Of a stretch of 14,297 bases of DNA, positions 1 to 14,297 are shown piece by piece. The translations under genes were made by a program, and so were the position numbers. Where the stretch lies: positions 1 through 14,297 of the forward strand of contig CAXBPH010000180.1 of the NCBI GenBank assembly GCA_963977445.1, in the 5' to 3' direction. The first letter of the stretch is position 1. Each line of letters begins with the position of its first letter. Below the pieces are notes generated by a model. That model worked only from the letters and a program-made list of their open reading frames with translations, was not told the DNA's origin and ran no database searches. The DNA comes from an uncultured bacterium. Its GTDB lineage: Bacteria > Hydrogenedentota > Hydrogenedentia > Hydrogenedentales > JAEUWI01.

Positions 1-20
1 GAATACTCAAGGAGATACAC

Positions 21-428
21 TTAACGCACTGTCCAGAATCCGGGGTCCACTTCTCTGTTCATCGATTGCAACATGGATTTGCTGAAGGTTTTTACCAGGG
101 AGACTTGCACCGATTTGCTTCCAACCATGCGTTCGAATGCGTCGTCTGCCGCCAATGTTCCCAAAGCGGTTCTCATATTCTGCAGAAGTTTTTCGAGATA
201 GAGACCACCGTCGTTGATATCTTCGGCGTGCATGACGACGGAGTAGAGGCTTTCTACGTGGGTCGTCAGGATAAACTTTTCTCGCTGTGCCGTGAAGGAA
301 TTTGCATACCATCGGTAAAAGGATTCTCCAGATAAATCGGCAGGCCCGAGTTCGGGGATGTGGAGTTTCTTGCGAAGCTTTTCAGTAACATGAATAATCA
401 ATCGTTCATCCGTGCTGGGGTTGGTCAT
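21..428 (-). CDS. DUF6933-like hypothetical protein, possibly shortened at the C-terminus
   Basis: 135-aa ORF whose motif order (IIHVTEKLRKKL ... WYANSF ... KFILTTHVESLYSVV ... KTFSKSMLQSMN) matches my recollection of DUF6933 proteins. It lies 42 bp downstream of the KAP NTPase on the same strand. The start could instead be the TTG at 401, since GGAG sits only 1 nt from ATG 428. Confidence 0.6.
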   Translation of the reverse strand: MTNPSTDERLIIHVTEKLRKKLHIPELGPADLSGESFYRWYANSFTAQREKFILTTHVESLYSVVMHAEDINDGGLYLEKLLQNMRTALGTLAADDAFERMVGSKSVQVSLVKTFSKSMLQSMNREVDPGFWTVR

Positions 429-470
429 TCTCCGATAGGTTGGGGAACCCTACGGTAGCGAAAGGGCTTT

Positions 471-1985
471 CTAAAGATCAATAGAGCCAAGTAATTTTTC
501 TATAGACTGCTTCAACGGGGTGATGCTCATTACCGATTGGCTCCTTGCTTCGAAGAACTTATTCAGGAAGTGTTCTCGCTGCTCAAGGTTCATGTTGACC
601 ATTCTTTTGGAAAGATATTGACAATCAGCGGGGTCGACTTCTTTGTTTTTCAATCTGCTCATTTCCTCGAATACTTGAGGGCGATTCCTATAACTTTCCG
701 GCATACATTGGTATACGGTCACCGAAATCCAGCAAGAATTATGGAAGTTTGGATTGTAATCGTCGGGCCCGAAATTTCCATAATGATCTTCGATGTAATC
801 AAGCACCTCTTTTGCCCCAATCTTACCTTGCGTGTATTGGGAATACAGCTTGTGATTCTTCAATCGGAGTACAAGGAGGATCGACGTTAGCTCGGGCCAG
901 AGAGTGTGGGAAGTGTTAACATTTCTAATTGTAAATACATAGGCGCGGACAAGACTCTCCACGTCACGAAGCGATAGCTTTAACTGCTCACTCAAGAACG
1001 GGAGGAGATTTTCCACCATTCGGTACGAATTGACGTGAGCGTTTCCTCGGGTTCGTCCGTATTCATCCACACCGTGTTTTTGAAGCAATGCCGTGCAATA
1101 CACGCCGGCGTCCACGGCAGGAAGCGAAAACTCCATATCAAAAAACCGTCTGAGATATCCGTCGACGTCAATATTCCCATAAACTGACTTGACGGATGAG
1201 CCGAGTTGATTCCGATCGATTCCCAGCACAAAGATCATGTTGGGAATGCCAAACAGGTGCTTAATCCGTTCCAGTAGCTCGATAGCAAACGTTGGACGAC
1301 ACCGGTCGAGTTCATCAATGATGAAAACGAGTGGGCCGCCGGTCTTATTTCTTACCTCAATGGTGAGTTCGCTTAATGCCTTGCGAAGTTCTTCGCGACT
1401 CTTGCGACTTTCTTGGTATTCGTCGAACAGGCGACCACGTGCAGTCTTTGAATCATCAGATTTTGCGGCAGCCAGAACTTCGGAAATGGTATTGATGAAG
1501 TTCTTGGTAGAAGCTATTTCGTCCTCGGTTAAATTTAGAAATCCGCAAGTTAGTGCGCTAAGTCCTTTGAGCGCAAACTTTGTCGAGACTTTTTGAGCGG
1601 CTTCGACTACCAACTTTAATGGAGTTCGGTATTCTTTCTCGGTGAAATTTTCACAAAGTTGACCAATTATCGCGATCAGAGGATCATTACAATAGTCGTC
1701 TTCCCACGCGTTGAAGTAGATTGCTTTCAGTTTATCTATCGCAAGGTGCTTTTGCCACCGAGTCAAAAAATATGTTTTTCCTGTTCCCCAACTTCCATTT
1801 ACCGTGATCACGAGTGGATTTTTTTCAACACGAACCAGATTTGTCAACGCTTTTGCTACGTTTTCGCGACCTGCGTCGTCACCTTCCCATGGTTTTCCAG
1901 AATTGACTTCACGTGTTTCTAATTTGAAAGGGGGAAGCTCTTGCTCCGCAGTATTCGGATCGGTATCGATCGGATTTGTTGTCAT
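471..1985 (-). CDS. KAP-family P-loop NTPase (PifA/YobI-like), 504 aa
   Basis: Walker A GSWGTGKT, KAP motif YFNAWEDDY..DPL, Walker B LVFIIDELDRCRP..ELLERIKHLF, and late motif YLRRFFDMEFSLP. Start moved from TTG 2057 to ATG 1985 because GAGGGAG precedes it and 2052-2057 is the -35 of a good promoter. Confidence 0.93.
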   Translation of the reverse strand: MTTNPIDTDPNTAEQELPPFKLETREVNSGKPWEGDDAGRENVAKALTNLVRVEKNPLVITVNGSWGTGKTYFLTRWQKHLAIDKLKAIYFNAWEDDYCNDPLIAIIGQLCENFTEKEYRTPLKLVVEAAQKVSTKFALKGLSALTCGFLNLTEDEIASTKNFINTISEVLAAAKSDDSKTARGRLFDEYQESRKSREELRKALSELTIEVRNKTGGPLVFIIDELDRCRPTFAIELLERIKHLFGIPNMIFVLGIDRNQLGSSVKSVYGNIDVDGYLRRFFDMEFSLPAVDAGVYCTALLQKHGVDEYGRTRGNAHVNSYRMVENLLPFLSEQLKLSLRDVESLVRAYVFTIRNVNTSHTLWPELTSILLVLRLKNHKLYSQYTQGKIGAKEVLDYIEDHYGNFGPDDYNPNFHNSCWISVTVYQCMPESYRNRPQVFEEMSRLKNKEVDPADCQYLSKRMVNMNLEQREHFLNKFFEARSQSVMSITPLKQSIEKLLGSIDL

Positions 1986-2028
1986 GATGTTGCTCCCTCT
2001 GCCGTGTTTTTTGGTGTTGCCGAAGGAG

Positions 2029-2057
2029 AGTATACGGATTAGAGGATGTCGGGGCAA
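2029..2057 (-). promoter_or_regulatory. sigma70-like promoter of the KAP NTPase gene
   Basis: Minus strand reads TTGCCC (2057-2052), 17 nt, TATACT (2034-2029); 43 nt separate it from ATG 1985. Confidence 0.65.
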
Positions 2058-2239
2058 TCGGCGTACCTATACATTAGACTTCGCCGTTCACCCTAAGGGT
2101 GCCGCCCCCACACGGAAGAGCGCGGGACCCGGCTTAGAATCCATATTCGGGTGAATTTACTGCGGTACTGCAACTTACTATCCCAATCTAAGTAGGGGTG
2201 CATCCATTCAAGGGGCACGTAACATGATTGGGGTTATCA

Positions 2240-3079
2240 ATGGACGATATTCAGCGAGCGGTTCGGCTAAGACGAGCTTGGGCGATGGTGAGAGAGCGCG
2301 GCTTGGGTACTCGAACTGTTGCACGAGCGCGAAGTACAGCGGAGGCTCCGAGTTTCCTGAGGAGAGGCGGTGAAGGAGAGGCGAGGGCCGATAGTGTTGC
2401 GAGGGAAGTCGGTGCTGTTTTTCAAAAGGGGCAGAAGCACTTTCCACGTGCTTCCCTGGGGACGGCATTGGAAGCGGCCACAACGGAGGTGGCGGATTAC
2501 GGTCTGGAGGCCTGGGGCGCGCGTCTGGAGAAGGATCTGCGCGATGTTGTTCAATCGGCTGCTACGACATCCTTCGTGAGCGGTGCGGAGGCGGTTGACC
2601 TGTCTACGGCAGGAAGGGGATGGGCGAATGACTACTGTGGGGAATTGGGGCGAGCGGCGACGGGTGGCGGGCAGAAAGCAGCTCGCGGGGCAGAGGAAGA
2701 AGTGCAATGGATGAACGCGGAGGTGTCGCAAATTGTTCAAAAGGGTGTGGACAAGTCGCTACGACCAGAAGACATAGTGGCGGAAGTCGATTTCCTGTTA
2801 GCGAGTACAGCCACGGGCCGTAGAGGCAAGCGAATTGCGTGGTCGGTAGTTTTTCGCTGGTGGCATGCCGGGCGAGACTGGCGCTATCGGCGAGAGGGAG
2901 CCACACATAAGATCTGGCATTTGAGTACTGGAGTTGATAACTGCCCCATTTGCCTGGGTAATGAAGACGCCGGTGAAATCGAAGCGGCACTAACTTTTCC
3001 GAGCGGACATAGCCACCCTTTGGCGCACCCTTGGTGCCATTGCTGGAACGAGTATACGGGGCTTCCGAAGCGACGGTGA
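2240..3079 (+). CDS. Phage minor head/head morphogenesis protein (MuF / SPP1 gp7-like), 279 aa
   Basis: C-terminal signature K.W...NCPIC..NE..G.I...FPSG...PLAHPWCHC, a variant of the family's CxxC...HPNCRC motif, preceded by the helical segment RRGKRIAWSVVFRWWHAG. ATG 2240 is preceded by GGGGT; the ORF track starts at TTG 2228. Confidence 0.8.
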   Translation: MDDIQRAVRLRRAWAMVRERGLGTRTVARARSTAEAPSFLRRGGEGEARADSVAREVGAVFQKGQKHFPRASLGTALEAATTEVADYGLEAWGARLEKDLRDVVQSAATTSFVSGAEAVDLSTAGRGWANDYCGELGRAATGGGQKAARGAEEEVQWMNAEVSQIVQKGVDKSLRPEDIVAEVDFLLASTATGRRGKRIAWSVVFRWWHAGRDWRYRREGATHKIWHLSTGVDNCPICLGNEDAGEIEAALTFPSGHSHPLAHPWCHCWNEYTGLPKRR

Positions 3080-3147
3080 ACACCTGATCTGTGAAGTCGC
3101 GTCGGACCAAGCGAAATGCCTAACCGACGATCAGTTACGTTTTCGAG

Positions 3148-3966
3148 CTACCGGGCGTCTGTGGTGTTCGCGAGCACCAACGCCGCCGCCCGGGGGAACC
3201 AGCCGCTGTTCCAATGATGTTGGAGCACCGCAGTCTCTTCATAGATGTGGGGGAACGCTGCGCCGACGAGTTGCTGGTGCACCGTTTCCATCTTGTGGCC
3301 TTTCGGGCCCATGGAAAGGAGGATCACTCGGGGAGCCTTGCCCATAAAGGGTGACGCGTGATTGCGCAGCAGCTTGGGGAGGGCGTAGTCCTGAAAGTTC
3401 TCGTCCGTCCCGAAAATGTCGATCATGCCGAATTGGTCGGGGTGCACTTTGTCGAGGGGTGCGTCCCATGCGACGGCCTTGCCGAAGAGTTCGGGATGAC
3501 GAAGCAATAGGGACAGAGCCCCGTTACCCGATTTACTGAAGCCGAGGAGCAGTCGCCCAGCCGGGGATTCGTCGACGGGATAATGTTCCTCGACCCACGG
3601 TAAAACGGTCTCGATGAAGTGCCGTTCGTGTTGCAAGGTGGCGTCGGTGGGGTGGTTGCCAAACCAGGGCAAGGCGGTGAAGGTGGGGGCGACACAAATC
3701 ACCTGATAGGTATTGGCAATATCCCCTTTGGCCGCCTCGTCGAGTCCCGAACCGTAACGGTATTCCGTGCCGGGCTCTACGGGGAGGATGTAAAGGACCC
3801 GATAGGTCGTCGTTCTATCGAGACCATCCGGGGTGATGACAGAGAGCGTTGTTGGGCCTGATTGATGGGGGCTGTTGATGCTTTGGGTGACGATGGTAGT
3901 CGCAGCAAATGCTGGGGCCACCGCCAAAATGACGAATCCCGAAATCAGGGCGCGAAGATGAAACAT
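3148..3966 (-). CDS. Secreted alpha/beta-hydrolase (putative esterase family), 272 aa
   Basis: Nucleophile elbow GFSKSG, C-terminal His motif [15 protein letters not shown] strand, signal peptide [21 protein letters not shown], and AGGAGG RBS just upstream of ATG 3966. Confidence 0.85.
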
Positions 3967-4008
3967 GAGACCTCCTCTGCGATTCACCGGCTTAGTCTAC
4001 ACTCATTT

Positions 4009-4093
4009 GTCCCACAGCGCCACAGGCCCCACAGGCCCCACAGGTCCCACAGGTCCCACAGGTCCCACAGGTCCCACAGGTCCCACAGGTCCC
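4009..4093. repeat. 9-bp tandem repeat array (CCCACAGGY)
   Basis: Six exact CCCACAGGT units at 4037-4090, plus CCCACAGGC (4028-4036), GCCACAGGC (4019-4027) and a degenerate GTCCCACAGC (4009-4018). No spacers. Confidence 0.97.
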
Positions 4094-4134
4094 CATCGAC
4101 GCCGAGGCCATATGCCCAATCGCCCGCGCAATAC

Positions 4135-4167
4135 AAAAAGCCCGGGTCGCGCTGGGCGACCCGGGCT
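4135..4167 (-). terminator. Rho-independent terminator of aceBA
   Basis: Perfect 12-bp inverted repeat AGCCCGGGTCGC/GCGACCCGGGCT with a 5-nt loop, followed on the minus strand by TTTTTG, 26 nt after the aceA stop. Confidence 0.9.
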
Positions 4168-4193
4168 GTAATCAGTCAATCAGGTATTCGAGC

Positions 4194-5504
4194 TTAGTGG
4201 AACTGCTCGCTTTCCGTGGAGCCGCTCATGGCGGTCACGGAGGATTCACCATCGGAGACGGCGTTGGTGATGGCGTCGAAGAAGCCGGTGCCCACGAAGG
4301 CCTGGTGCTTAACGGCACCAAAGCCGAGTTCTTCCTGGCTGAATTCTTCCTGCTGCATTTCGACGAAGGCCGTCATCTGACGGTCTCTGTAGCCATTGGC
4401 GAGTTTCCACATGCCCAGGTTGAGGTTGTGGAAGCCGGCCAGGGTGATGAACTGGAACTTGTAACCCATGGCACCGAGTTCGTTCTGGAAACGGGCGATG
4501 TCGGCATCGCTGAGCTTGGATTTCCAGTTGAAGGAGGGCGAGCAGTTGTAGGCGAGCAGTTTGCCGGGGAATTCGGCATGAACGGCGTCGGCAAACTTCT
4601 GCGCGGCTTCCAGGCTGGGCGTGCTGGTTTCGCACCAGATGAGGTCGGCGAAGGGGGCATAGTTCAATGCACGCGCGATGGCCTGGTCGATGCCGGGCTT
4701 GGTGACATAGAAACCTTCGGAGGTGCGTTCACCCGTGCAGAAGGGCTTGTCGCGGTCGTCAATGTCGCTGGTCAAAAGACCGGCGGCATCGGCGTCGGTG
4801 CGAGCGATAAGCACGGTGGGCGTACCGGCCACGTCGGCGGCCAGACGGGCAGCGTGGAGCTTGGCGACGAATTCACGGCTGGGAACGAGCACTTTACCAC
4901 CGAGGTGGCCGCACTTCTTGGCGGAAGCCAGCTGGTCTTCGAAGTGCACACCAGCAGCACCGGCCTGAATCATCTGAAGCATCAATTCGTAGGCATTCAA
5001 CGGGCCACCAAAACCGGCTTCGGCGTCGGCCACGATGGGCTGGAAGTAGTCATGCTTCTTCACGCCACTGATGGTCTGAATCTGGTCGCGGCGGGAGAGG
5101 GCATTGTTAATGCGCTGCACGACAGCGGGCACGCTGTTGGAAGGATAGAGGCTCTGGTCGGGGTACATGGTGCAGGAAAGGTTGGCATCGCCTGCAACCT
5201 GCCAGCCGGAGAGGTAGATGGCGCGGAGGCCGGCTTCTACCTGCTGGATGGCCTGGTTACCCGTCAGGGCGCCGAGGGCGTTAACGTAGCCGTCGCCGGA
5301 CTCATTCACATAACCCCAAAGCTTTTCCGCCGTGGCTTTGGCTACGGAGTGTTCGGTCTTCATCGAGCCGCGCAGTTCGAGGACCTTCTGTGCGTCGTAG
5401 GGGCGGCTGATACCAGCGAATCGGTCGGATGCCCAAAGTTCATTGAGTTCCTTGATGTCGGCATCGCTGATCAGGGGGTTCTTCTTTTGTCCGTTGTTAC
5501 TCAT
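4194..5504 (-). CDS. aceA: Isocitrate lyase, 436 aa
   Basis: Catalytic [12 protein letters not shown], plus [54 protein letters not shown] and C-terminal STESEQF. AAGGA RBS upstream. Confidence 0.99.
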
Positions 5505-5598
5505 AATACGTGTTGTCCTTGTTTGCCTCGCGGCAGGTTTTGGTGCCTTGCTCCGCTATCGGAGTCGCCGGACCATCGTTCCGTTGTGGCCCTGCCAC

Positions 5599-7200
5599 TC
5601 AGTCCAATTGCTCATAGGCAGCGAGGGTGAGAAACTCGGCCAGATCCTCATTGGCCGTGAACTCATCAAAAAGCTTCGCTGCTTCTGAATACTTTCCATT
5701 GGTGAAGCGATCCCCACCAACTTCATCCTTAATCGCATCCATTTCCTCGGCCGCAATCGCGCGGACCAATTCCATGGTTACGGCACGGCCATCATTGAGG
5801 ACGGCCTTGCTGTTGTGTACCCATTGCCAGAGCTGGGTACGGGAGATCTCCGCCGTGGCGGCATCTTCCATGAGATTATAGAGGGGCACGCAACCCACGC
5901 CGCGCAACCAGGCTTCCAGATACTGGACGCCGACTTTGATGTTTTCGCGAATACCGTGCTCGGTGATTTCGCCCGTGGGAATGGCCAGCAGGTCTGCGGC
6001 GGTGGTTGTTACATCGTCGCGCTGCTTATCAATCTGGTTGGGCTTGTCGCCCAGTACCTTGTCGAATTCTTCCATGGCGATAGCCACCAACGCCGGGTGG
6101 GCTACCCAGGTGCCATCATGACCGTCTTCGGCTTCCCGCTTCTTATCGGTGTGCACCTTGGTCATGGCCGCGTTGTTCGCGGCTTCATCATTCTTAATCG
6201 GAATCTGGGCGGCCATACCGCCCATGGCGAAGGCACCCCGCTTGTGACAAGCCTTGATGCAGGCCAGTGAGTAGGCGCGCATGAAGGGGGTTGTCATACC
6301 AACCAATGCGCGGTCGGGTACGAGGAACTCTTCCTTCTTTGCGAATTTTTTGATGTAGCTGAAGATGTAATCCCAACGACCGCAATTGAGGCCACCGCTA
6401 TGGTGCCGCAGTTCGAAGAGGATTTCTTCCATCTGGAAGGCGGCGAGGATGTGCTCAATAAGCACCGTACCCTTCACCGTGCCTTGGGGAATGCCCAGCA
6501 GTTCCTGGGCCTTCACGAAGACATCGTTCCACAGGCGGGCTTCCAGATAGTGTTCCATCTTGGGTAGATAGAGATAGACGCCGCCGCCCTGATCCACACG
6601 ATATTGGGCATTGTGGAAGAAATACAGGGCGAAATCGAAAAGACTACCCGAAGCGCGCTCACCATCTACTAACACGTGCTTTTCAGAAAGGTGCCAGCCA
6701 CGGGGACGGACCATCAAAACAGCCGTCTTTTCTTTCAGGGCATAGGATTTGCCATTGGGGGCCGTGAAATCGATCTGGCGACGGAGGGCGTCACGCATGT
6801 TGACTTGGCCGTCAAGGGTCGCAGACCACGTGGGGCCATGGGAGTCTTCGAAGTCGGCCATATAGGTCTTGGCACCCGAATTAAGGGCGTTGATGACCAT
6901 CTTCCGGTCAACGGGGCCGGTGATTTCCACCCGGCGGTCCTGGAAATCTGCAGGTACGGGGTCAACTTTCCAGTCGCCACTGCGAATTTCGGTGGTTTCA
7001 GCGAAATAATCGGGCATTTCGCCCCGATCCAGTGCTGCTTGCCGTTCCTTGCGTTTCTCGAGCAACTCCAACCGTCTGGGGTTAAAGGCGCGGTGCAAGT
7101 CGGCGTAAAACGCTAACGCATCTTTCGTTAGGATTTCGGCCTGAGTGTCCGAAACGGGTCCCAGGAGTTCCAGGCCCTCGGGCACGTCGATTGATGCCAT
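5599..7200 (-). CDS. aceB: Malate synthase A, 533 aa
   Basis: DRRVEITGP, MADFEDS, VRPRGWHL, YLPKMEHYLEARLWN, GLNCGRWDYIFS, GHDGTWVAHP, LMEDAATAEISRTQLWQW. Start moved to ATG 7200 (AAAGGA RBS) from GTG 7242. Confidence 0.99.
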   Translation of the reverse strand: MASIDVPEGLELLGPVSDTQAEILTKDALAFYADLHRAFNPRRLELLEKRKERQAALDRGEMPDYFAETTEIRSGDWKVDPVPADFQDRRVEITGPVDRKMVINALNSGAKTYMADFEDSHGPTWSATLDGQVNMRDALRRQIDFTAPNGKSYALKEKTAVLMVRPRGWHLSEKHVLVDGERASGSLFDFALYFFHNAQYRVDQGGGVYLYLPKMEHYLEARLWNDVFVKAQELLGIPQGTVKGTVLIEHILAAFQMEEILFELRHHSGGLNCGRWDYIFSYIKKFAKKEEFLVPDRALVGMTTPFMRAYSLACIKACHKRGAFAMGGMAAQIPIKNDEAANNAAMTKVHTDKKREAEDGHDGTWVAHPALVAIAMEEFDKVLGDKPNQIDKQRDDVTTTAADLLAIPTGEITEHGIRENIKVGVQYLEAWLRGVGCVPLYNLMEDAATAEISRTQLWQWVHNSKAVLNDGRAVTMELVRAIAAEEMDAIKDEVGGDRFTNGKYSEAAKLFDEFTANEDLAEFLTLAAYEQLD

Positions 7201-7327
7201 CGGTAGCAATCCTTTCACTGTGGAAATGCGGAAGTTCGACACAAGGGCACCACCTGTGGGGCTTGCGTCGCAAATAATTCGGGGTTTTCCACGTCTCTCC
7301 GAGTCTCAGCAACGGTACCACCGGTTG

Positions 7328-7378: not shown

Positions 7379-7449
7379 CCTTGGGCCTTGTTGGCTTGAG
7401 ATTTCTAATAGTCGCTGTGCCCGACCCCCTGGCACAGGAGAGAGAAAAC

Positions 7450-8361
7450 GTGCCGAAGAACGAATTCCGGTACAAGCAGAATCGCCTCCAGCAACTGCGC
7501 GGTTTTTGCTACGCCGCTGCCGATGGCAGTATATCAAAAGCGGCCGAACGCATGTTTTTGAGTCAGCCCTCTGTCTCTTTGCAGATTCAGGCGCTGGAGC
7601 GGGAACTGGACGTAACCGTGTTTGAGCGGCGAGGGCCCAAGATCAAGCTTACGCCCGACGGCGAGATGCTCTTTGAGCTCGCCATGCCGCTCGTGGAACG
7701 TATTGATCAGCTTCCCGACGAGTTTGAGTCCCGCAGGGGCAATGTGGAGCAGGGACGCATCGATCTGGCGGCCGGTTGGTCCACCATCCTCTATGTGCTT
7801 CCCGAATATGTGGAATTATTTCGGAAAGCCCACCCGAACATTGAATTGAAGCTTCACAATGTGACGGGTGCCGAGGGGCTGGCCCAGCTGCGTGCGGGCC
7901 ACGTAGATTTTGCCGTGGGTCCCCTGTTGCAGGCACCCGACGACATCATCTTCCATCCCATCGTTTCCTATGAGCCTTTGTTGATCACGGCCCTGGACCA
8001 TCCCCTGGCCAATGCAACCGAACTTTCCCTCGCCGCAATCAGTAAGCATGCCCTCATCCTGCCGCCCCGTCACCTGAGTACCTGGAGCACGGTGGACTCG
8101 GTCTTCAAGGCCCAAGGTCTGCCCTATGAGGTGGCCATGGAAGTGGGGGGCTGGGAAGTCATCAAGAAATATGTGGAACTCGGCCTGGGCATTTCCGTCG
8201 TCATGAGCATCTGCATCACGGGCGAAGAAAAGCTGGCAGTCATCCCGGCAGGCGAGTTTTTTCCCAACCGTACCTACGGTGTCGTCATGCGAAAGGGGAA
8301 GTTTCTTAGTCCCCAGGCCCGGCGCTTTATTGAGCTCATGTTGCCCGACGTAACGCTGTGA
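7450..8361 (+). CDS. LysR-family transcriptional regulator, 303 aa, probable regulator of aceBA
   Basis: HTH LQQLRGFCYAA..GSISKAAERMFLSQPSVSLQIQALERELDVTVFERRGPKIKLTPDG and a LysR substrate domain (EVIKKYVELGLGISV). GTG 7450 follows CAGGAGAGAG. Divergent from aceB. Confidence 0.95.
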   Translation: MPKNEFRYKQNRLQQLRGFCYAAADGSISKAAERMFLSQPSVSLQIQALERELDVTVFERRGPKIKLTPDGEMLFELAMPLVERIDQLPDEFESRRGNVEQGRIDLAAGWSTILYVLPEYVELFRKAHPNIELKLHNVTGAEGLAQLRAGHVDFAVGPLLQAPDDIIFHPIVSYEPLLITALDHPLANATELSLAAISKHALILPPRHLSTWSTVDSVFKAQGLPYEVAMEVGGWEVIKKYVELGLGISVVMSICITGEEKLAVIPAGEFFPNRTYGVVMRKGKFLSPQARRFIELMLPDVTL

Positions 8362-8540
8362 GCGATTCGGACTAAAAAATTCCGGTCTGATGGGGGGGCA
8401 GCGGGGCGACGTAATACGGGCAGTACATTCGTCTCTTTCGCTGCTGGCCGACATGCTTCACGACGTTGGATGGAGCTGCAGTTGCCCATAGGAACCCAAT
8501 TCTCTGATCGGATCGATTGGGCACGGGTTTACCGGGTATA

Positions 8541-8571
8541 CAAACAAAAACGCCCCACAGGTGTGGGGCGT
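8541..8571 (-). terminator. Rho-independent terminator of the ABC/DUF3299 operon
   Basis: Stem ACGCCCCAC/GTGGGGCGT (8550-8571) with a 4-nt loop, followed on the minus strand by TTTTTGTTTG, 26 nt after the stop at 8598. Confidence 0.88.
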
Positions 8572-8597
8572 AGTGTTACCGTGAAAGTCGCAGTCGA

Positions 8598-9221
8598 TCA
8601 GGAGTCGCCACTCAATTCTATGGGTGCCTGAAGTTCCTCACTGGGGGTGTGCTGGGGAACCATGTGCTCTGGCGGAATGTAGCGACGTTGGAGACGGGCA
8701 CCTTTTTCTGCGGATTCGAGGGCGGCGTGTTCGATAGAGAAGAAGGATTGCTGGTTGGGCCCTTCGTGGAGGCGCAGTACCCCATTGACGAGGACGGGCT
8801 GCTCGTAGAGCATGGTCGTGGTGCCTTCTTCCATGTGAATGGCCATCACGTCATGGACCGGCGGCCGGTTACAGAAATAGCATTCAATAGGGAGGGGCAG
8901 GAGCATGAATTCCTTCATTTCGCGGAATTCATTTTCGGGCACCATAAAACCGATGAGATTGACCTGGGTGTTATTCAGGGCCAATAACTCTTCGGTAAAG
9001 GTGGCACCTTTGCGCAGGTTACCGTCGGTCGCGCGCATGTGATGCCATTTGAGGATTTCCATGCCGGAATTCTGGCGTTCACTTTCCCACTGCTGCCGCT
9101 CTTTGTCTTTCTTCTGAGCGAGGACGCCACGTTGTATATTCGAGTTGAAAAAGATGACCAGTGCCAGAACGATAATGACGCCTACCGCTGCCGTAAGCTC
9201 GCGTTTTACCCGTTGTCTCAT
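8598..9221 (-). CDS. DUF3299-like membrane-anchored exported protein, 207 aa
   Basis: N-terminal TM helix, then L.ALNNTQVNLIGFMVP, EFMLLP, CYFC..PP and PVLVNGVL, the DUF3299 pattern. It is the last gene after an ABC ATPase and permease, the usual context for this family. Confidence 0.75.
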   Translation of the reverse strand: MRQRVKRELTAAVGVIIVLALVIFFNSNIQRGVLAQKKDKERQQWESERQNSGMEILKWHHMRATDGNLRKGATFTEELLALNNTQVNLIGFMVPENEFREMKEFMLLPLPIECYFCNRPPVHDVMAIHMEEGTTTMLYEQPVLVNGVLRLHEGPNQQSFFSIEHAALESAEKGARLQRRYIPPEHMVPQHTPSEELQAPIELSGDS

Positions 9222-12580: not shown

Positions 12581-12609
12581 TTGACTGGGTTCCTGCGTGG
12601 GCCTATACT
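12581..12609 (+). promoter_or_regulatory. Near-consensus sigma70 promoter of the lamin-tail-domain gene
   Basis: TTGACT (12581-12586), 17 nt, TATACT (12604-12609). Confidence 0.75.
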
Positions 12610-12664
12610 CGGCCCATTGTTTGTGACCGTGGTAAATTGCATGGACCCGGAAGGAAAAGTATAC

Positions 12665-14297
12665 ATGTACAACGAAGTTCTTGTTGTTGAACGATCTGGA
12701 TTTTTGGCGAGGGTGGGGTTGGCGACGTGGTTGTTTATTCTTGTACTCAGCGTTGCGTTAACCACGGTGGCTTCGGCCAACGACAATCTTCGGATTACCG
12801 AGTTCATGTATAACGCGCCAGCAGGGGGCGTGAGTTTTATCGAGTTCCAGAATGTGGGCACCCAGACGATTGACCTTTCGGGTATTACGTTCAGTGATGG
12901 CCTCACCTATACCTTTCCCGCGAACAGTAGCCTCGCACCGGGTGCCTACTATGTGATCACGTCTTCGGCCACCGACTTTGCGGCCCGTTACCCCGATGGG
13001 GCCTTCGACGGCACCTACCTGGGGGGATTGAACAATGACGGGGACCGGCTGGAGTTGAGCTCGTCCACTAACGTGCCCTTCCTGCTCCTCAATTATGATG
13101 ACGATGCACCGTGGCCCGGGGCGGCCGATGGGTTGGGGTTTTCGCTGGTCATCGTCGACCCTCTTGGCGATCCGAGTGACCCAGCCAATTGGCGCGCCAG
13201 CGGCGTTGCAGGAGGCACACCGGGCGCTGCGGATGTGCCGGTGTCGTTGGCCGGGGTGCTTGTGAATGAAGCCCTTACCCACACCGATCTGCCCCAAGTG
13301 GATACCATTGAACTCTACAATCCGACCGATAGTGCAGCGGATATTCGGGGATGGTATATTACCGACGACCGCAGTCAGCCCGCCAAGGCCCGGATTCCCG
13401 ATAGTTCCCAGTACGTGTTGGGAGCCGGTGCTTACGGGATCTTAAATGAAGCCGACTTTCGTGACAATCCCGGTATGGTCAATGGCAGCCCGCTTCCCGG
13501 TTTTGCGCTGAGTTCTCACAGCGAGGAAGTGGTCTATCTGTTCTCGGCAGATGCCGCAGGCAACCTGACGGGCTACAGCCATGGCTTTTCCTTTGAAGCC
13601 TCAATCAACGGCGTAACTTTCGGGCGCTATGTTTCGAGCGATGGCGTGGCCCATTTTGTGGCCCAGGCGGTGAATACCCTGGGAGCCGCAAACGGAGCCC
13701 CAGCGGTGGGGCCGGTTGTGATTGATGAGATTTTTTACAATCCTGCCGTCGGAAGCAATGATATCGAATACCTGGGCATGACCAATATCTCCGGAGAAGA
13801 TGTGAATCTCTGGGACGACTCCAAGAACGGCGTTCCCGAAAATACCTGGCGCATCAATGGGACAGGGTACTTCTTTCCACAAAATACCGTTCTTCCTGCC
13901 GGTGGGCGATTGATTCTTGCCAATGCAGCGCCGGCTGCGTTTCGCGCGCAATATAATATCCCCGATGAGGTTGCTGTCTTTGGGCCCTTTGGGGAACTTG
14001 CCGGTTTGAGCAACAGCGGCGAAACGATTACGCTTTTTCAGGCCGATGCGCCCGAACTCGACGCCACGCCCTACATTGTCGTAGACCGGGTTAAATTCAG
14101 TGATACGGCACCCTGGCCCAATGCGGATGGCAATGGTTTGGCCCTGGTGCGGCGCACTAACGGGGCATTCGGAAATGATCCGGCCAACTGGCAAGCGGCC
14201 ACACCGGGTTTTGGGCGTGCCGTAAGCGGGGGCGAAGGTGAGGGCGAAGGTGAAGGTGAAGGTGAAGGTGAAGGTGAAGGTGAAGGTGAAGGTGAAG
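12665..14297 (+). CDS. Secreted protein with three lamin-tail-like (LTD) domains and a Gly-Glu linker; 3'-partial
   Basis: Translated by hand; not in the ORF track because no stop lies in the window. ATG 12665 follows GAAGGA (alternative ATG 12641). Signal peptide ends VASA. LTD starts are LRITEFMYN..FIEFQN..IDLSG (12788), VLVNEALTH..IELYNP..DIRGWYITD (13256) and VVIDEIFYNP..IEY (13715); (GE)n follows from 14231. Confidence 0.9.
   Translation, partial: MYNEVLVVERSGFLARVGLATWLFILVLSVALTTVASANDNLRITEFMYNAPAGGVSFIEFQNVGTQTIDLSGITFSDGLTYTFPANSSLAPGAYYVITSSATDFAARYPDGAFDGTYLGGLNNDGDRLELSSSTNVPFLLLNYDDDAPWPGAADGLGFSLVIVDPLGDPSDPANWRASGVAGGTPGAADVPVSLAGVLVNEALTHTDLPQVDTIELYNPTDSAADIRGWYITDDRSQPAKARIPDSSQYVLGAGAYGILNEADFRDNPGMVNGSPLPGFALSSHSEEVVYLFSADAAGNLTGYSHGFSFEASINGVTFGRYVSSDGVAHFVAQAVNTLGAANGAPAVGPVVIDEIFYNPAVGSNDIEYLGMTNISGEDVNLWDDSKNGVPENTWRINGTGYFFPQNTVLPAGGRLILANAAPAAFRAQYNIPDEVAVFGPFGELAGLSNSGETITLFQADAPELDATPYIVVDRVKFSDTAPWPNADGNGLALVRRTNGAFGNDPANWQAATPGFGRAVSGGEGEGEGEGEGEGEGEGEGEGE
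14231..14297 (+). repeat. Coding hexamer repeat (mostly GGTGAA) encoding at least (GE)11
   Basis: GGCGAA GGTGAG GGCGAA then uninterrupted GGTGAA units to the window end, in frame with the LTD gene. Confidence 0.97.

Follow-up and report, generated by a model that had tools for sequence, protein, structure and literature searches.

A PDC-S20-type KAP NTPase gene with DUF6933 and MuF-like neighbours at the visible end of a probable turnover-prone island in an uncultured Hydrogenedentota bacterium

The DNA analysed here (the window) is a complete contig of 14,297 bp (CAXBPH010000180.1) from an uncultured bacterium of the Hydrogenedentota, and its three genes of interest lie between positions 21 and 3079. 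An earlier reading of the letters alone (the original prediction) had proposed that these genes may together be one undescribed phage-conflict system. The three open reading frames (ORFs) on which it was built match the ORF list exactly. On the − strand a gene for a KAP-family P-loop nucleoside triphosphatase (NTPase) with a soluble product (471–1985, 504 aa counted from the ATG) is followed, after an intergenic gap of 42 bp (429–470), by a gene of the DUF6933 family (21–428, 135 aa). On the + strand, across a divergent spacer that is 254 bp long as had been described (1986–2239), lies a gene for a short MuF homologue (2240–3079, 279 aa from the ATG) that carries no C-terminal extension. Other starts are available: a TTG at 2057 would lengthen the KAP protein to 528 aa, and the MuF-like protein could begin at a TTG at 2228 (283 aa) or an ATG at 2285 (264 aa, the gene caller's version, P0001), although for this gene an upstream start is favoured because a full-length relative, P0124, reaches 12 residues past the version that begins at 2285. 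Within the spacer there is one sigma-70-like consensus match, on the − strand (2057→2029, TTGCCC-17-TATACT) and 43 nt upstream of the KAP ATG, and no + strand promoter-like site was called there for the MuF-like gene; such sites are consensus matches only, with six in 1–4300 against 2.8 ± 1.5 in shuffled sequences. The terminator scan called no terminator-like site in the 42-bp gap, so co-transcription of the KAP and DUF6933 genes is plausible.

The identification of the 471–1985 product as a KAP NTPase was borne out by Pfam (KAP_NTPase, PF07693; 127.2 bits against a cut-off of 20, residues 40–348 aligned with profile positions 1–285 of 293) and by its intact Walker motifs. Residues G64, W66, G67, G69, K70 and T71 of Walker A and D224, E225, L226 and D227 of Walker B are invariant across a 46-sequence family alignment that includes the window protein. 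The highest 19-residue Kyte–Doolittle mean is 1.06, so that there is no transmembrane segment, and from this lack of a hydrophobic stretch the protein is predicted to be a soluble KAP-type NTPase; the transmembrane helices inserted in many members are reportedly not universal, according to the original description of the family. Pfam recognised no effector domain in the protein, and a sequence search with the KAP profile (alignment A1) found no relative in the PDB. The protein belongs to a large family, with over 5513 relatives about 480 aa long, whose C-terminal third aligns poorly between members, and most tblastn matches to the loci of relatives end near residue 400. Besides a match to phrog_8614 (248.8 bits), the protein matches the PADLOC model PDLC04959 (PDC-S20) over nearly its full length, at 371.9 bits (E 1.9e-111, profile positions 4–435 of 464), and three other PDC-S20 models at 126–176 bits. 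The KAP part of the locus is thus not undescribed, since a PADLOC candidate already covers it. According to the accessible part of the preprint in which they were introduced, the PDCs are 145 candidates defined by their embedding in BREX, DISARM or type I restriction-modification (RM) systems (Payne 2024).

Comparison with characterized KAP proteins places the window protein apart from each of them. It resembles PifA, the KAP-type protein of the F plasmid that excludes phage T7, in the P-loop region (75.3 bits, protein residues 39–382 against profile positions 20–344 of 720), and both are single-protein exclusion candidates; but the N-terminal half of the profile alone is matched, the protein has 504 aa against a 720-position model, and the PDC-S20 score is five times higher. 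An assignment to PifA was rejected on the score and partial coverage. QatA of the QatABCD system has a homologous KAP-type ATPase domain (PADLOC 66.6 bits; NCBIfam NF041923 73.3 bits), but the latter score lies far under the NCBIfam cut-off of 600, on which QatA was likewise rejected, and Pfam and PADLOC scans found no QatB-, QatC- or QatD-like neighbour in the window. The validated defence proteins Tmn and the membrane KAP NTPases of enterococci and Streptococcus thermophilus share with it the form of a single-protein KAP-family P-loop NTPase, but in the accessible descriptions of them two transmembrane helices are inserted in the NTPase domain, whereas the window protein has none.

To place the gene among its relatives, GTDB species genomes were searched with the 46-member alignment as query, and the best 80 of at least 504 confirmed KAP loci were taken with 6 kb on each side; the sampled genomes are mostly uncultured. 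In 38 of the 80 the KAP gene sits inside a type I RM operon. HsdS was found in 34 loci, HsdM in 31 and both in 27, nearly all on the strand of the KAP gene, and among 66 ORFs immediately downstream of KAP that were scanned with Pfam, 30 were Methylase_S (hsdS), one was HsdM and three were SIR2_2. The neighbourhood that recurs around these KAP genes is a type I RM operon, not the trio of the window. This nesting agrees with the way in which, in the accessible text, the PDCs were defined (Payne 2024), and in that respect the collected relatives are like PDC-S20 itself; the window copy and its three nearest relatives differ in lying outside restriction systems within the DNA that is visible. PrrC, an anticodon nuclease described in the accessible part of the same preprint as lying nearly always within type I RM systems (Payne 2024), offers a functional analogy, being nested between hsdM and hsdS as the KAP family usually is, but the two have no sequence relation and the KAP protein has no nuclease domain, so that a common guarding logic can only be supposed. 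Small ORFs flanking the KAP relatives include DarT, ThsB_TIR, PIN, HicB, BrnT/BrnA, SocA_Panacea, Macro and DUF4411.

The closest relatives in the sample are 55% (L001), 45% (L002) and 44% (L003) identical to the window protein, and in all three loci the KAP gene stands solitary among housekeeping genes with no other PADLOC match nearby. A quick tree of 77 proteins joined the window protein with those of L001 and L002 in one clade (Shimodaira–Hasegawa-like approximate likelihood ratio support, SH-aLRT, 99), and the restriction context was scattered over this tree with at least 14 changes. The PDC-S20-type soluble KAP family thus enters and leaves type I restriction operons.

Several further features of these loci are recorded here as observations in their own right. 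Directly upstream of KAP and on the same strand, L001 (2816–4099) and L002 (3221–4273) carry a DUF1559/N-terminal-methylation (pseudopilin-like) gene, of which the window has no counterpart. The ORF after KAP in L017 (7401–9728) encodes a 775-aa fusion of Methylase_S, RhuM and Fic. The type I restriction operons of L039, L040, L044 and L017 hold several embedded defence or toxin–antitoxin genes at once; DarT genes recur in them a few kilobases downstream of the hsdS that follows KAP, and ThsB-type TIR and PIN genes recur upstream. In three Caldilineaceae loci (L028, 7737–11327; L035 and L036, about 7580–8730) a SIR2-like gene comes after KAP, one of them encoding 1196 aa with DUF4020, which may point to a KAP–SIR2 pairing.

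KAP relatives that are 27–33% identical also occur in five phage-collection records and 42 plasmid records. In a Vibrio prophage such a gene lies near an integrase and a methyltransferase gene, and in a fragment of a Helicobacter Mu-like prophage (BK070154.1; L083, 11918–19334) it lies beside an S24 repressor and a Dam methylase gene, and a minor capsid (MuF-type) gene is about 4.9 kb away. The phage-borne copies exist as accessory genes and form no KAP–MuF unit. As a separate remark on this record, the annotated terL of BK070154.1 is merely 438 bp long and the head module runs in the opposite orientation to the transposase genes.

If the three genes of the window formed one system, as had been suggested, their homologues might be expected together elsewhere, and in these loci they never are. 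A MuF-like gene was found near KAP in none of the 80 loci, either by tblastn (E ≤ 1) or by phmmer (E ≤ 0.01), and two local MuF hidden Markov models (HMMs) run against every ORF of 50 aa or more in the loci (6041 in all) gave no match at E ≤ 1, the window protein serving as positive control (128.6 bits). A DUF6933 gene was likewise found in 0 of the 80 loci by tblastn and phmmer with the window protein. Pfam gave no DUF6933 match among the 66 ORFs immediately downstream of KAP, nor, at E ≤ 1e-5, among 205 small flanking ORFs (90–235 aa, non-overlapping, within 3.5 kb, matches to restriction genes excluded); this last scan left out the 122 larger ones of 327 candidate flanking ORFs.

The DUF6933 label itself stands: the protein encoded by 21–428 scores 61.7 bits against Pfam PF22016 (cut-off 27; residues 11–125, profile positions 1–113 of 157), and all 30 of the 30 matches in an ESM Atlas feature search were DUF6933 clusters (score 0.95). 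In the Atlas the family occurs as stand-alone forms of 108–170 aa in several phyla, and some of its domains are fused to PRiA4_ORF3. A word-based search found no close homologue, a sequence search found no PDB relative, the plasmid collection held no match at E ≤ 1, and a literature search by the family name found no paper. The PADLOC check for an already named system, which for the KAP gene gave the PDC-S20 candidate, gave for this protein weak, partial matches to three PDC-S63 models (E 1.1e-3, 1.5e-3 and 2e-2; 13–17 bits), which we treat as a lead only. An AlphaFold2 single-sequence model was too poor for use (mean predicted local distance difference test score, pLDDT, 47.8), and a prediction of the complex between the KAP protein (alignment A1) and the DUF6933 protein returned no answer (score 0.00), which is neutral as to binding.

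For the product of 2240–3079 Pfam gave no family at E ≤ 10 and PHROGs gave phrog_595 only (E 0.024), yet several other comparisons agree on the MuF label that it had been given. A word-based search turned up one relative. When 1.84 billion representatives were searched exhaustively with phmmer, 235 matches came out at E ≤ 1e-3, of which three proteins reached E ≤ 1e-30, namely the MuF-like protein itself, P0002 (55% identical) and P0124 (37%, over the full length). Among the top 50 non-self matches that follow P0002, 44 have PF04233 (E ≤ 1e-3) within the region aligned to the query, with the gathering score reached in 30 of the 50, and several of these proteins are portal–MuF fusions. An hhalign comparison of the three-member subfamily with 19 PF04233-positive proteins aligned 216 columns with a probability of 99.9% (E 7.8e-35), but is not independent because the template set was drawn from the query's own phmmer matches. 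Independent support comes from the ESM Atlas, in which the protein has a feature score of 0.96 to a viral Phage_Mu_F cluster and, by structure, matches a ‘phage minor head protein’ cluster with a TM-score of 0.81 across 245 residues. A C-terminal C-x2-C ... H-P-x-C-x-C motif is conserved and is invariant in the subfamily, and the protein ends 11 residues past it with no toxin extension, for which reason it is a ‘short MuF’ in the sense of the accessible part of Jamet 2017. Like the short MuF proteins of PF04233 from Mu (gpF) and SPP1 (gp7), it shows profile and fold similarity over its full length; it differs in being too divergent for Pfam, in having ‘IAWSV’ in place of the typical ‘IAxTE’ consensus stretch, and in lacking a portal gene before it and a head module around it. 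By these comparisons the MuF label is right, although confirmed indirectly, and the product is a very divergent, nearly orphan branch of the short MuF minor head proteins.

The surroundings of this gene are not those usual for its family. In the accessible part of the survey by Jamet (2017), the place of a muf gene is directly behind a portal gene, and 96% of those in bacteria belong to prophages or their remnants; here the upstream gene is KAP, on the opposite strand, and none of the 13 large ORFs of the window was recognised by Pfam as encoding an integrase, terminase, portal or capsid protein. A MuF polymorphic toxin was also considered and rejected, there being no C-terminal extension and no small immunity ORF, and the next gene being a convergent esterase whose stop lies 68 bp from the MuF-like stop. 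The protein has no PDB relative by sequence search, no match in the plasmid collection at E ≤ 0.01, a single 34-residue match in a phage collection of 50,697 records and no significant similarity to the minor capsid protein of BK070154 (E 0.10). Its AlphaFold2 single-sequence model (mean pLDDT 39.5) was too poor for use. Separately, the Atlas structure search also returned unannotated Actinomycetota clusters (TM-score 0.64–0.72), one with DivIVA on 67% of its members, so MuF-like folds may occur outside phages in bacterial proteins, a lead only.

Composition sets the three genes apart from their surroundings. GC content is 43–49% over positions 1–2000 against 53–61% elsewhere in the window, and GC at third codon positions (GC3) is 0.47 in the KAP gene (GC 45%), 0.55 in the MuF-like gene (GC 59%) and 0.57 in the DUF6933 gene against 0.60–0.76 in the nine other genes. 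When synonymous codon choice was scored against the usage of neighbouring genes (codon-usage z), the KAP gene stood at −12.8, the MuF-like gene at −11.3 and the DUF6933 gene at −2.8; eight of the nine others fell within −2.7 to +5.7, the exception being a lamin-tail gene at −7.7. The secreted-type esterase gene that converges on the MuF-like gene (3148–3987, − strand; Pfam Esterase, 36 bits) has host-like codon usage (GC3 0.70, z −2.7) and would thus mark the right edge of the atypical segment. The difference between the KAP gene at 45% GC and the MuF-like gene at 59% does not suggest a single import of both.

A related genome allows a comparison. L002 is a contig of a Hydrogenedentota metagenome-assembled genome whose malate synthase and isocitrate lyase (ICL) are 95% and 94% identical to those of the window at the protein level. 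By blastn, 4135–6315 of the window is 84.6% identical to L002 over 2215 nt, and the similarity ends at 4135, at a terminator-like hairpin after the ICL gene (4167→4139, − strand; 12 pairs followed by a T-run), the two features together spanning 4135–4167. Past this point the window continues with esterase, MuF-like, KAP and DUF6933 genes, and L002 with an ORF of 161 aa of unknown nature, a DUF1559/N-methyl protein, a KAP gene (45% identical) and an esterase gene (58% identical). Searches by tblastn, phmmer, the HMMs and Pfam found neither a MuF-like nor a DUF6933 gene in L002. Within one variable region, then, two related genomes have the candidate gene at different slots and in divergent copies, which argues for a turnover hotspot.

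To the right of the esterase gene the window is occupied by the ICL gene (4194–5504, −), the malate synthase gene (5599–7242, −) and a LysR regulator gene (7381–8361) divergent from them, all recognised by Pfam, followed by DUF3299, MacB-type ABC transporter and phosphotransferase genes and by a lamin-tail-domain ORF (12581–14296) that is open-ended at the right contig end. The housekeeping character that the original prediction gave to the neighbours agrees with the Pfam assignments of the esterase, ICL, malate synthase, LysR and ABC transporter genes. The segment 4194–8361 is in itself a glyoxylate-shunt pair with a divergently transcribed LysR gene. No tRNA gene or Rfam match was found within the window, and a repeat scan of 1–4300 found no att-like direct repeats of note. 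There are two short tandem repeats. One, at 4009–4093, consists of 9.6 copies of a 9-nt unit (GTCCCACAG) in the 206 bp that separate the esterase start from the ICL stop; it sits just inside the part that is not syntenic with L002, and a spurious + strand ORF translates it as HRS. The other, 10.7 copies of GAAGGT at 14234–14297, lies within the lamin-tail ORF and reaches the right contig end, and this repeat is the likely cause of the assembly break there.

From these results 21–3079 is probably one end, the visible one, of an island beside the glyoxylate-shunt genes that was acquired horizontally and is prone to turnover, and its genes a pile-up and not a three-gene system. A chance pile-up at an insertion hotspot had been offered in the original prediction as the alternative, and it is now the favoured account, given that synteny with L002 ends at 4135 and that a 45%-identical KAP gene occupies another slot there. 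The best-supported reading is that the working part of the island is the KAP NTPase, a self-sufficient single-gene anti-phage candidate of the PDC-S20 type; its single-gene behaviour is suggested by L001–L003, which hold KAP alone among housekeeping genes with no PADLOC neighbour. A role in conflict with phages is accordingly a reasonable proposal for the KAP gene and does not extend to the DUF6933 and MuF-like genes. The DUF6933 gene is probably cargo, possibly co-transcribed, and nothing conserved ties it to the NTPase. As for the MuF-like gene, it is most likely left over from a phage-derived element and stranded beside the NTPase by island turnover, as its being a short MuF gene, the lack of portal or terminase genes in 14.3 kb and the opposite-strand KAP gene upstream all indicate.

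Family context suggests how such a protein might act. The KAP protein would be a soluble, NTP-driven switch, in which the conserved N-terminal P-loop domain (about residues 40–350) would hydrolyse NTP and power assembly, and the variable, helical C-terminal part (about 350–504) would give specificity by recognising either a cue from the phage or a host complex being disabled. Sensing would lead to NTP-dependent assembly and so to an infection that is blocked or aborted. As no effector domain is recognisable, the protein would act either on its own or by way of host factors. For many relatives, a likely partner would be the type I restriction complex around the gene, by a logic like that of PrrC.

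A number of points weigh against this account. The co-occurrence test is one-sided, having been made from the KAP side with a nearest sampled KAP protein that is 55% identical; slightly closer KAP proteins (P0005, P0007 and P0008, 54–57%) are on short contigs outside the sample of 80 loci, and the scope of the test excludes the neighbourhoods of P0002, P0124 and any DUF6933 relative. The MuF-like gene appears unlike a decaying relic, being intact, conserved at 55% and 37% identity, and invariant in its C-terminal motif. The foreign composition of all three genes, together with their contiguity, would suit import as one module as well. The KAP and DUF6933 genes, on one strand, 42 bp apart and with no called terminator between them, are operon-like and could be a lineage-specific pair. 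PDC-S20 is only a candidate for phage defence, and a literature search by that name came back empty. Finally, the left contig end lies 20 bp past the DUF6933 stop, so that leftward partner, restriction or phage genes would be invisible and their absence cannot be asserted; the original statement that integrase, terminase, portal and major capsid genes are lacking holds for the 13 large ORFs of the window and says nothing of the DNA to their left.

Some of these points would be accommodated if the KAP and DUF6933 genes were a lineage-specific two-gene system, in which the NTPase senses infection, the DUF6933 protein is an effector, adaptor or antidote and the MuF-like gene is a bystander. In favour of this, no effector domain is recognisable in the KAP protein itself, the DUF6933 protein weakly matches three PDC-S63 models, and both genes have GC3 values below those of host genes, as well as being arranged on one strand over a 42-bp gap with no terminator-like site; but a DUF6933 gene accompanies KAP in 0 of 80 loci, L001–L003, the closest relatives, have KAP alone, PDC-S20 is catalogued as a single-gene candidate, and the codon-usage deviations of the two genes are strongly unlike (z −12.8 against −2.8). 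We consider such a pair unlikely.

We also doubt that the three genes are the cargo end of a prophage or phage satellite lying off the left contig end, with the MuF-like protein as a working head component and the KAP and DUF6933 genes as accessory or superinfection-exclusion genes. The contig does break inside the island, the three genes are all foreign in composition, and members of the KAP family are carried by phages (phrog_8614, 249 bits; five phage-collection records), in BK070154 at about 4.9 kb from a MuF-type minor capsid gene. The prophage setting that the accessible part of Jamet (2017) reports for 96% of bacterial muf genes points the same way, but the position directly after a portal gene that is normal in that source is not seen here, where an opposite-strand KAP gene lies upstream, a host-like esterase gene 68 bp downstream and no head module on either side. 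Nor does the window contain an integrase, tRNA or att-like repeat, and the MuF-like protein finds little among phages (E 0.10 against the BK070154 minor capsid protein, one 34-residue match in 50,697 records).

A single system of all three genes, in which a domesticated MuF protein would be a decoy, a sensor partner (bait for incoming portal or head components) or an assembly poison, the KAP protein the switch and the DUF6933 protein the effector, output or antidote, is very improbable: the genes adjoin a common 254-bp divergent spacer and are all foreign by codon usage, the MuF-like gene is intact outside any head module and belongs to a subfamily of three proteins at E ≤ 1e-30 among 1.84 billion representatives, and PifA, a relative of the KAP protein, reacts to a capsid protein of phage, but a MuF-like ORF is present in 0 of 80 KAP loci, the KAP and MuF-like genes are unlike in composition (GC 45% against 59%, GC3 0.47 against 0.55), which makes co-import doubtful, the spacer has no called promoter-like site on the + strand, and the syntenic L002 has KAP with no MuF.

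The KAP gene, then, is a further copy in a catalogued candidate family, the DUF6933 and short MuF genes belong to known families, and no conserved new architecture was found. If the island with a single working NTPase gene is the true account, little is new about the locus itself: it adds another PDC-S20 copy, placed where the chromosome varies, in a phylum that has received little study. The locus would matter more if its three genes were a defence system of this lineage that had captured a virion protein, far-fetched though that looks here, and it serves as a warning that a defence gene beside a lone phage structural gene can come about from island turnover alone. For the family the gain is more general, as 80 mostly uncultured genomes independently confirm the traffic of KAP genes with type I RM operons and their company of DarT, TIR, PIN and Panacea-type genes, and thereby strengthen the case for putting PDC-S20 to the test.

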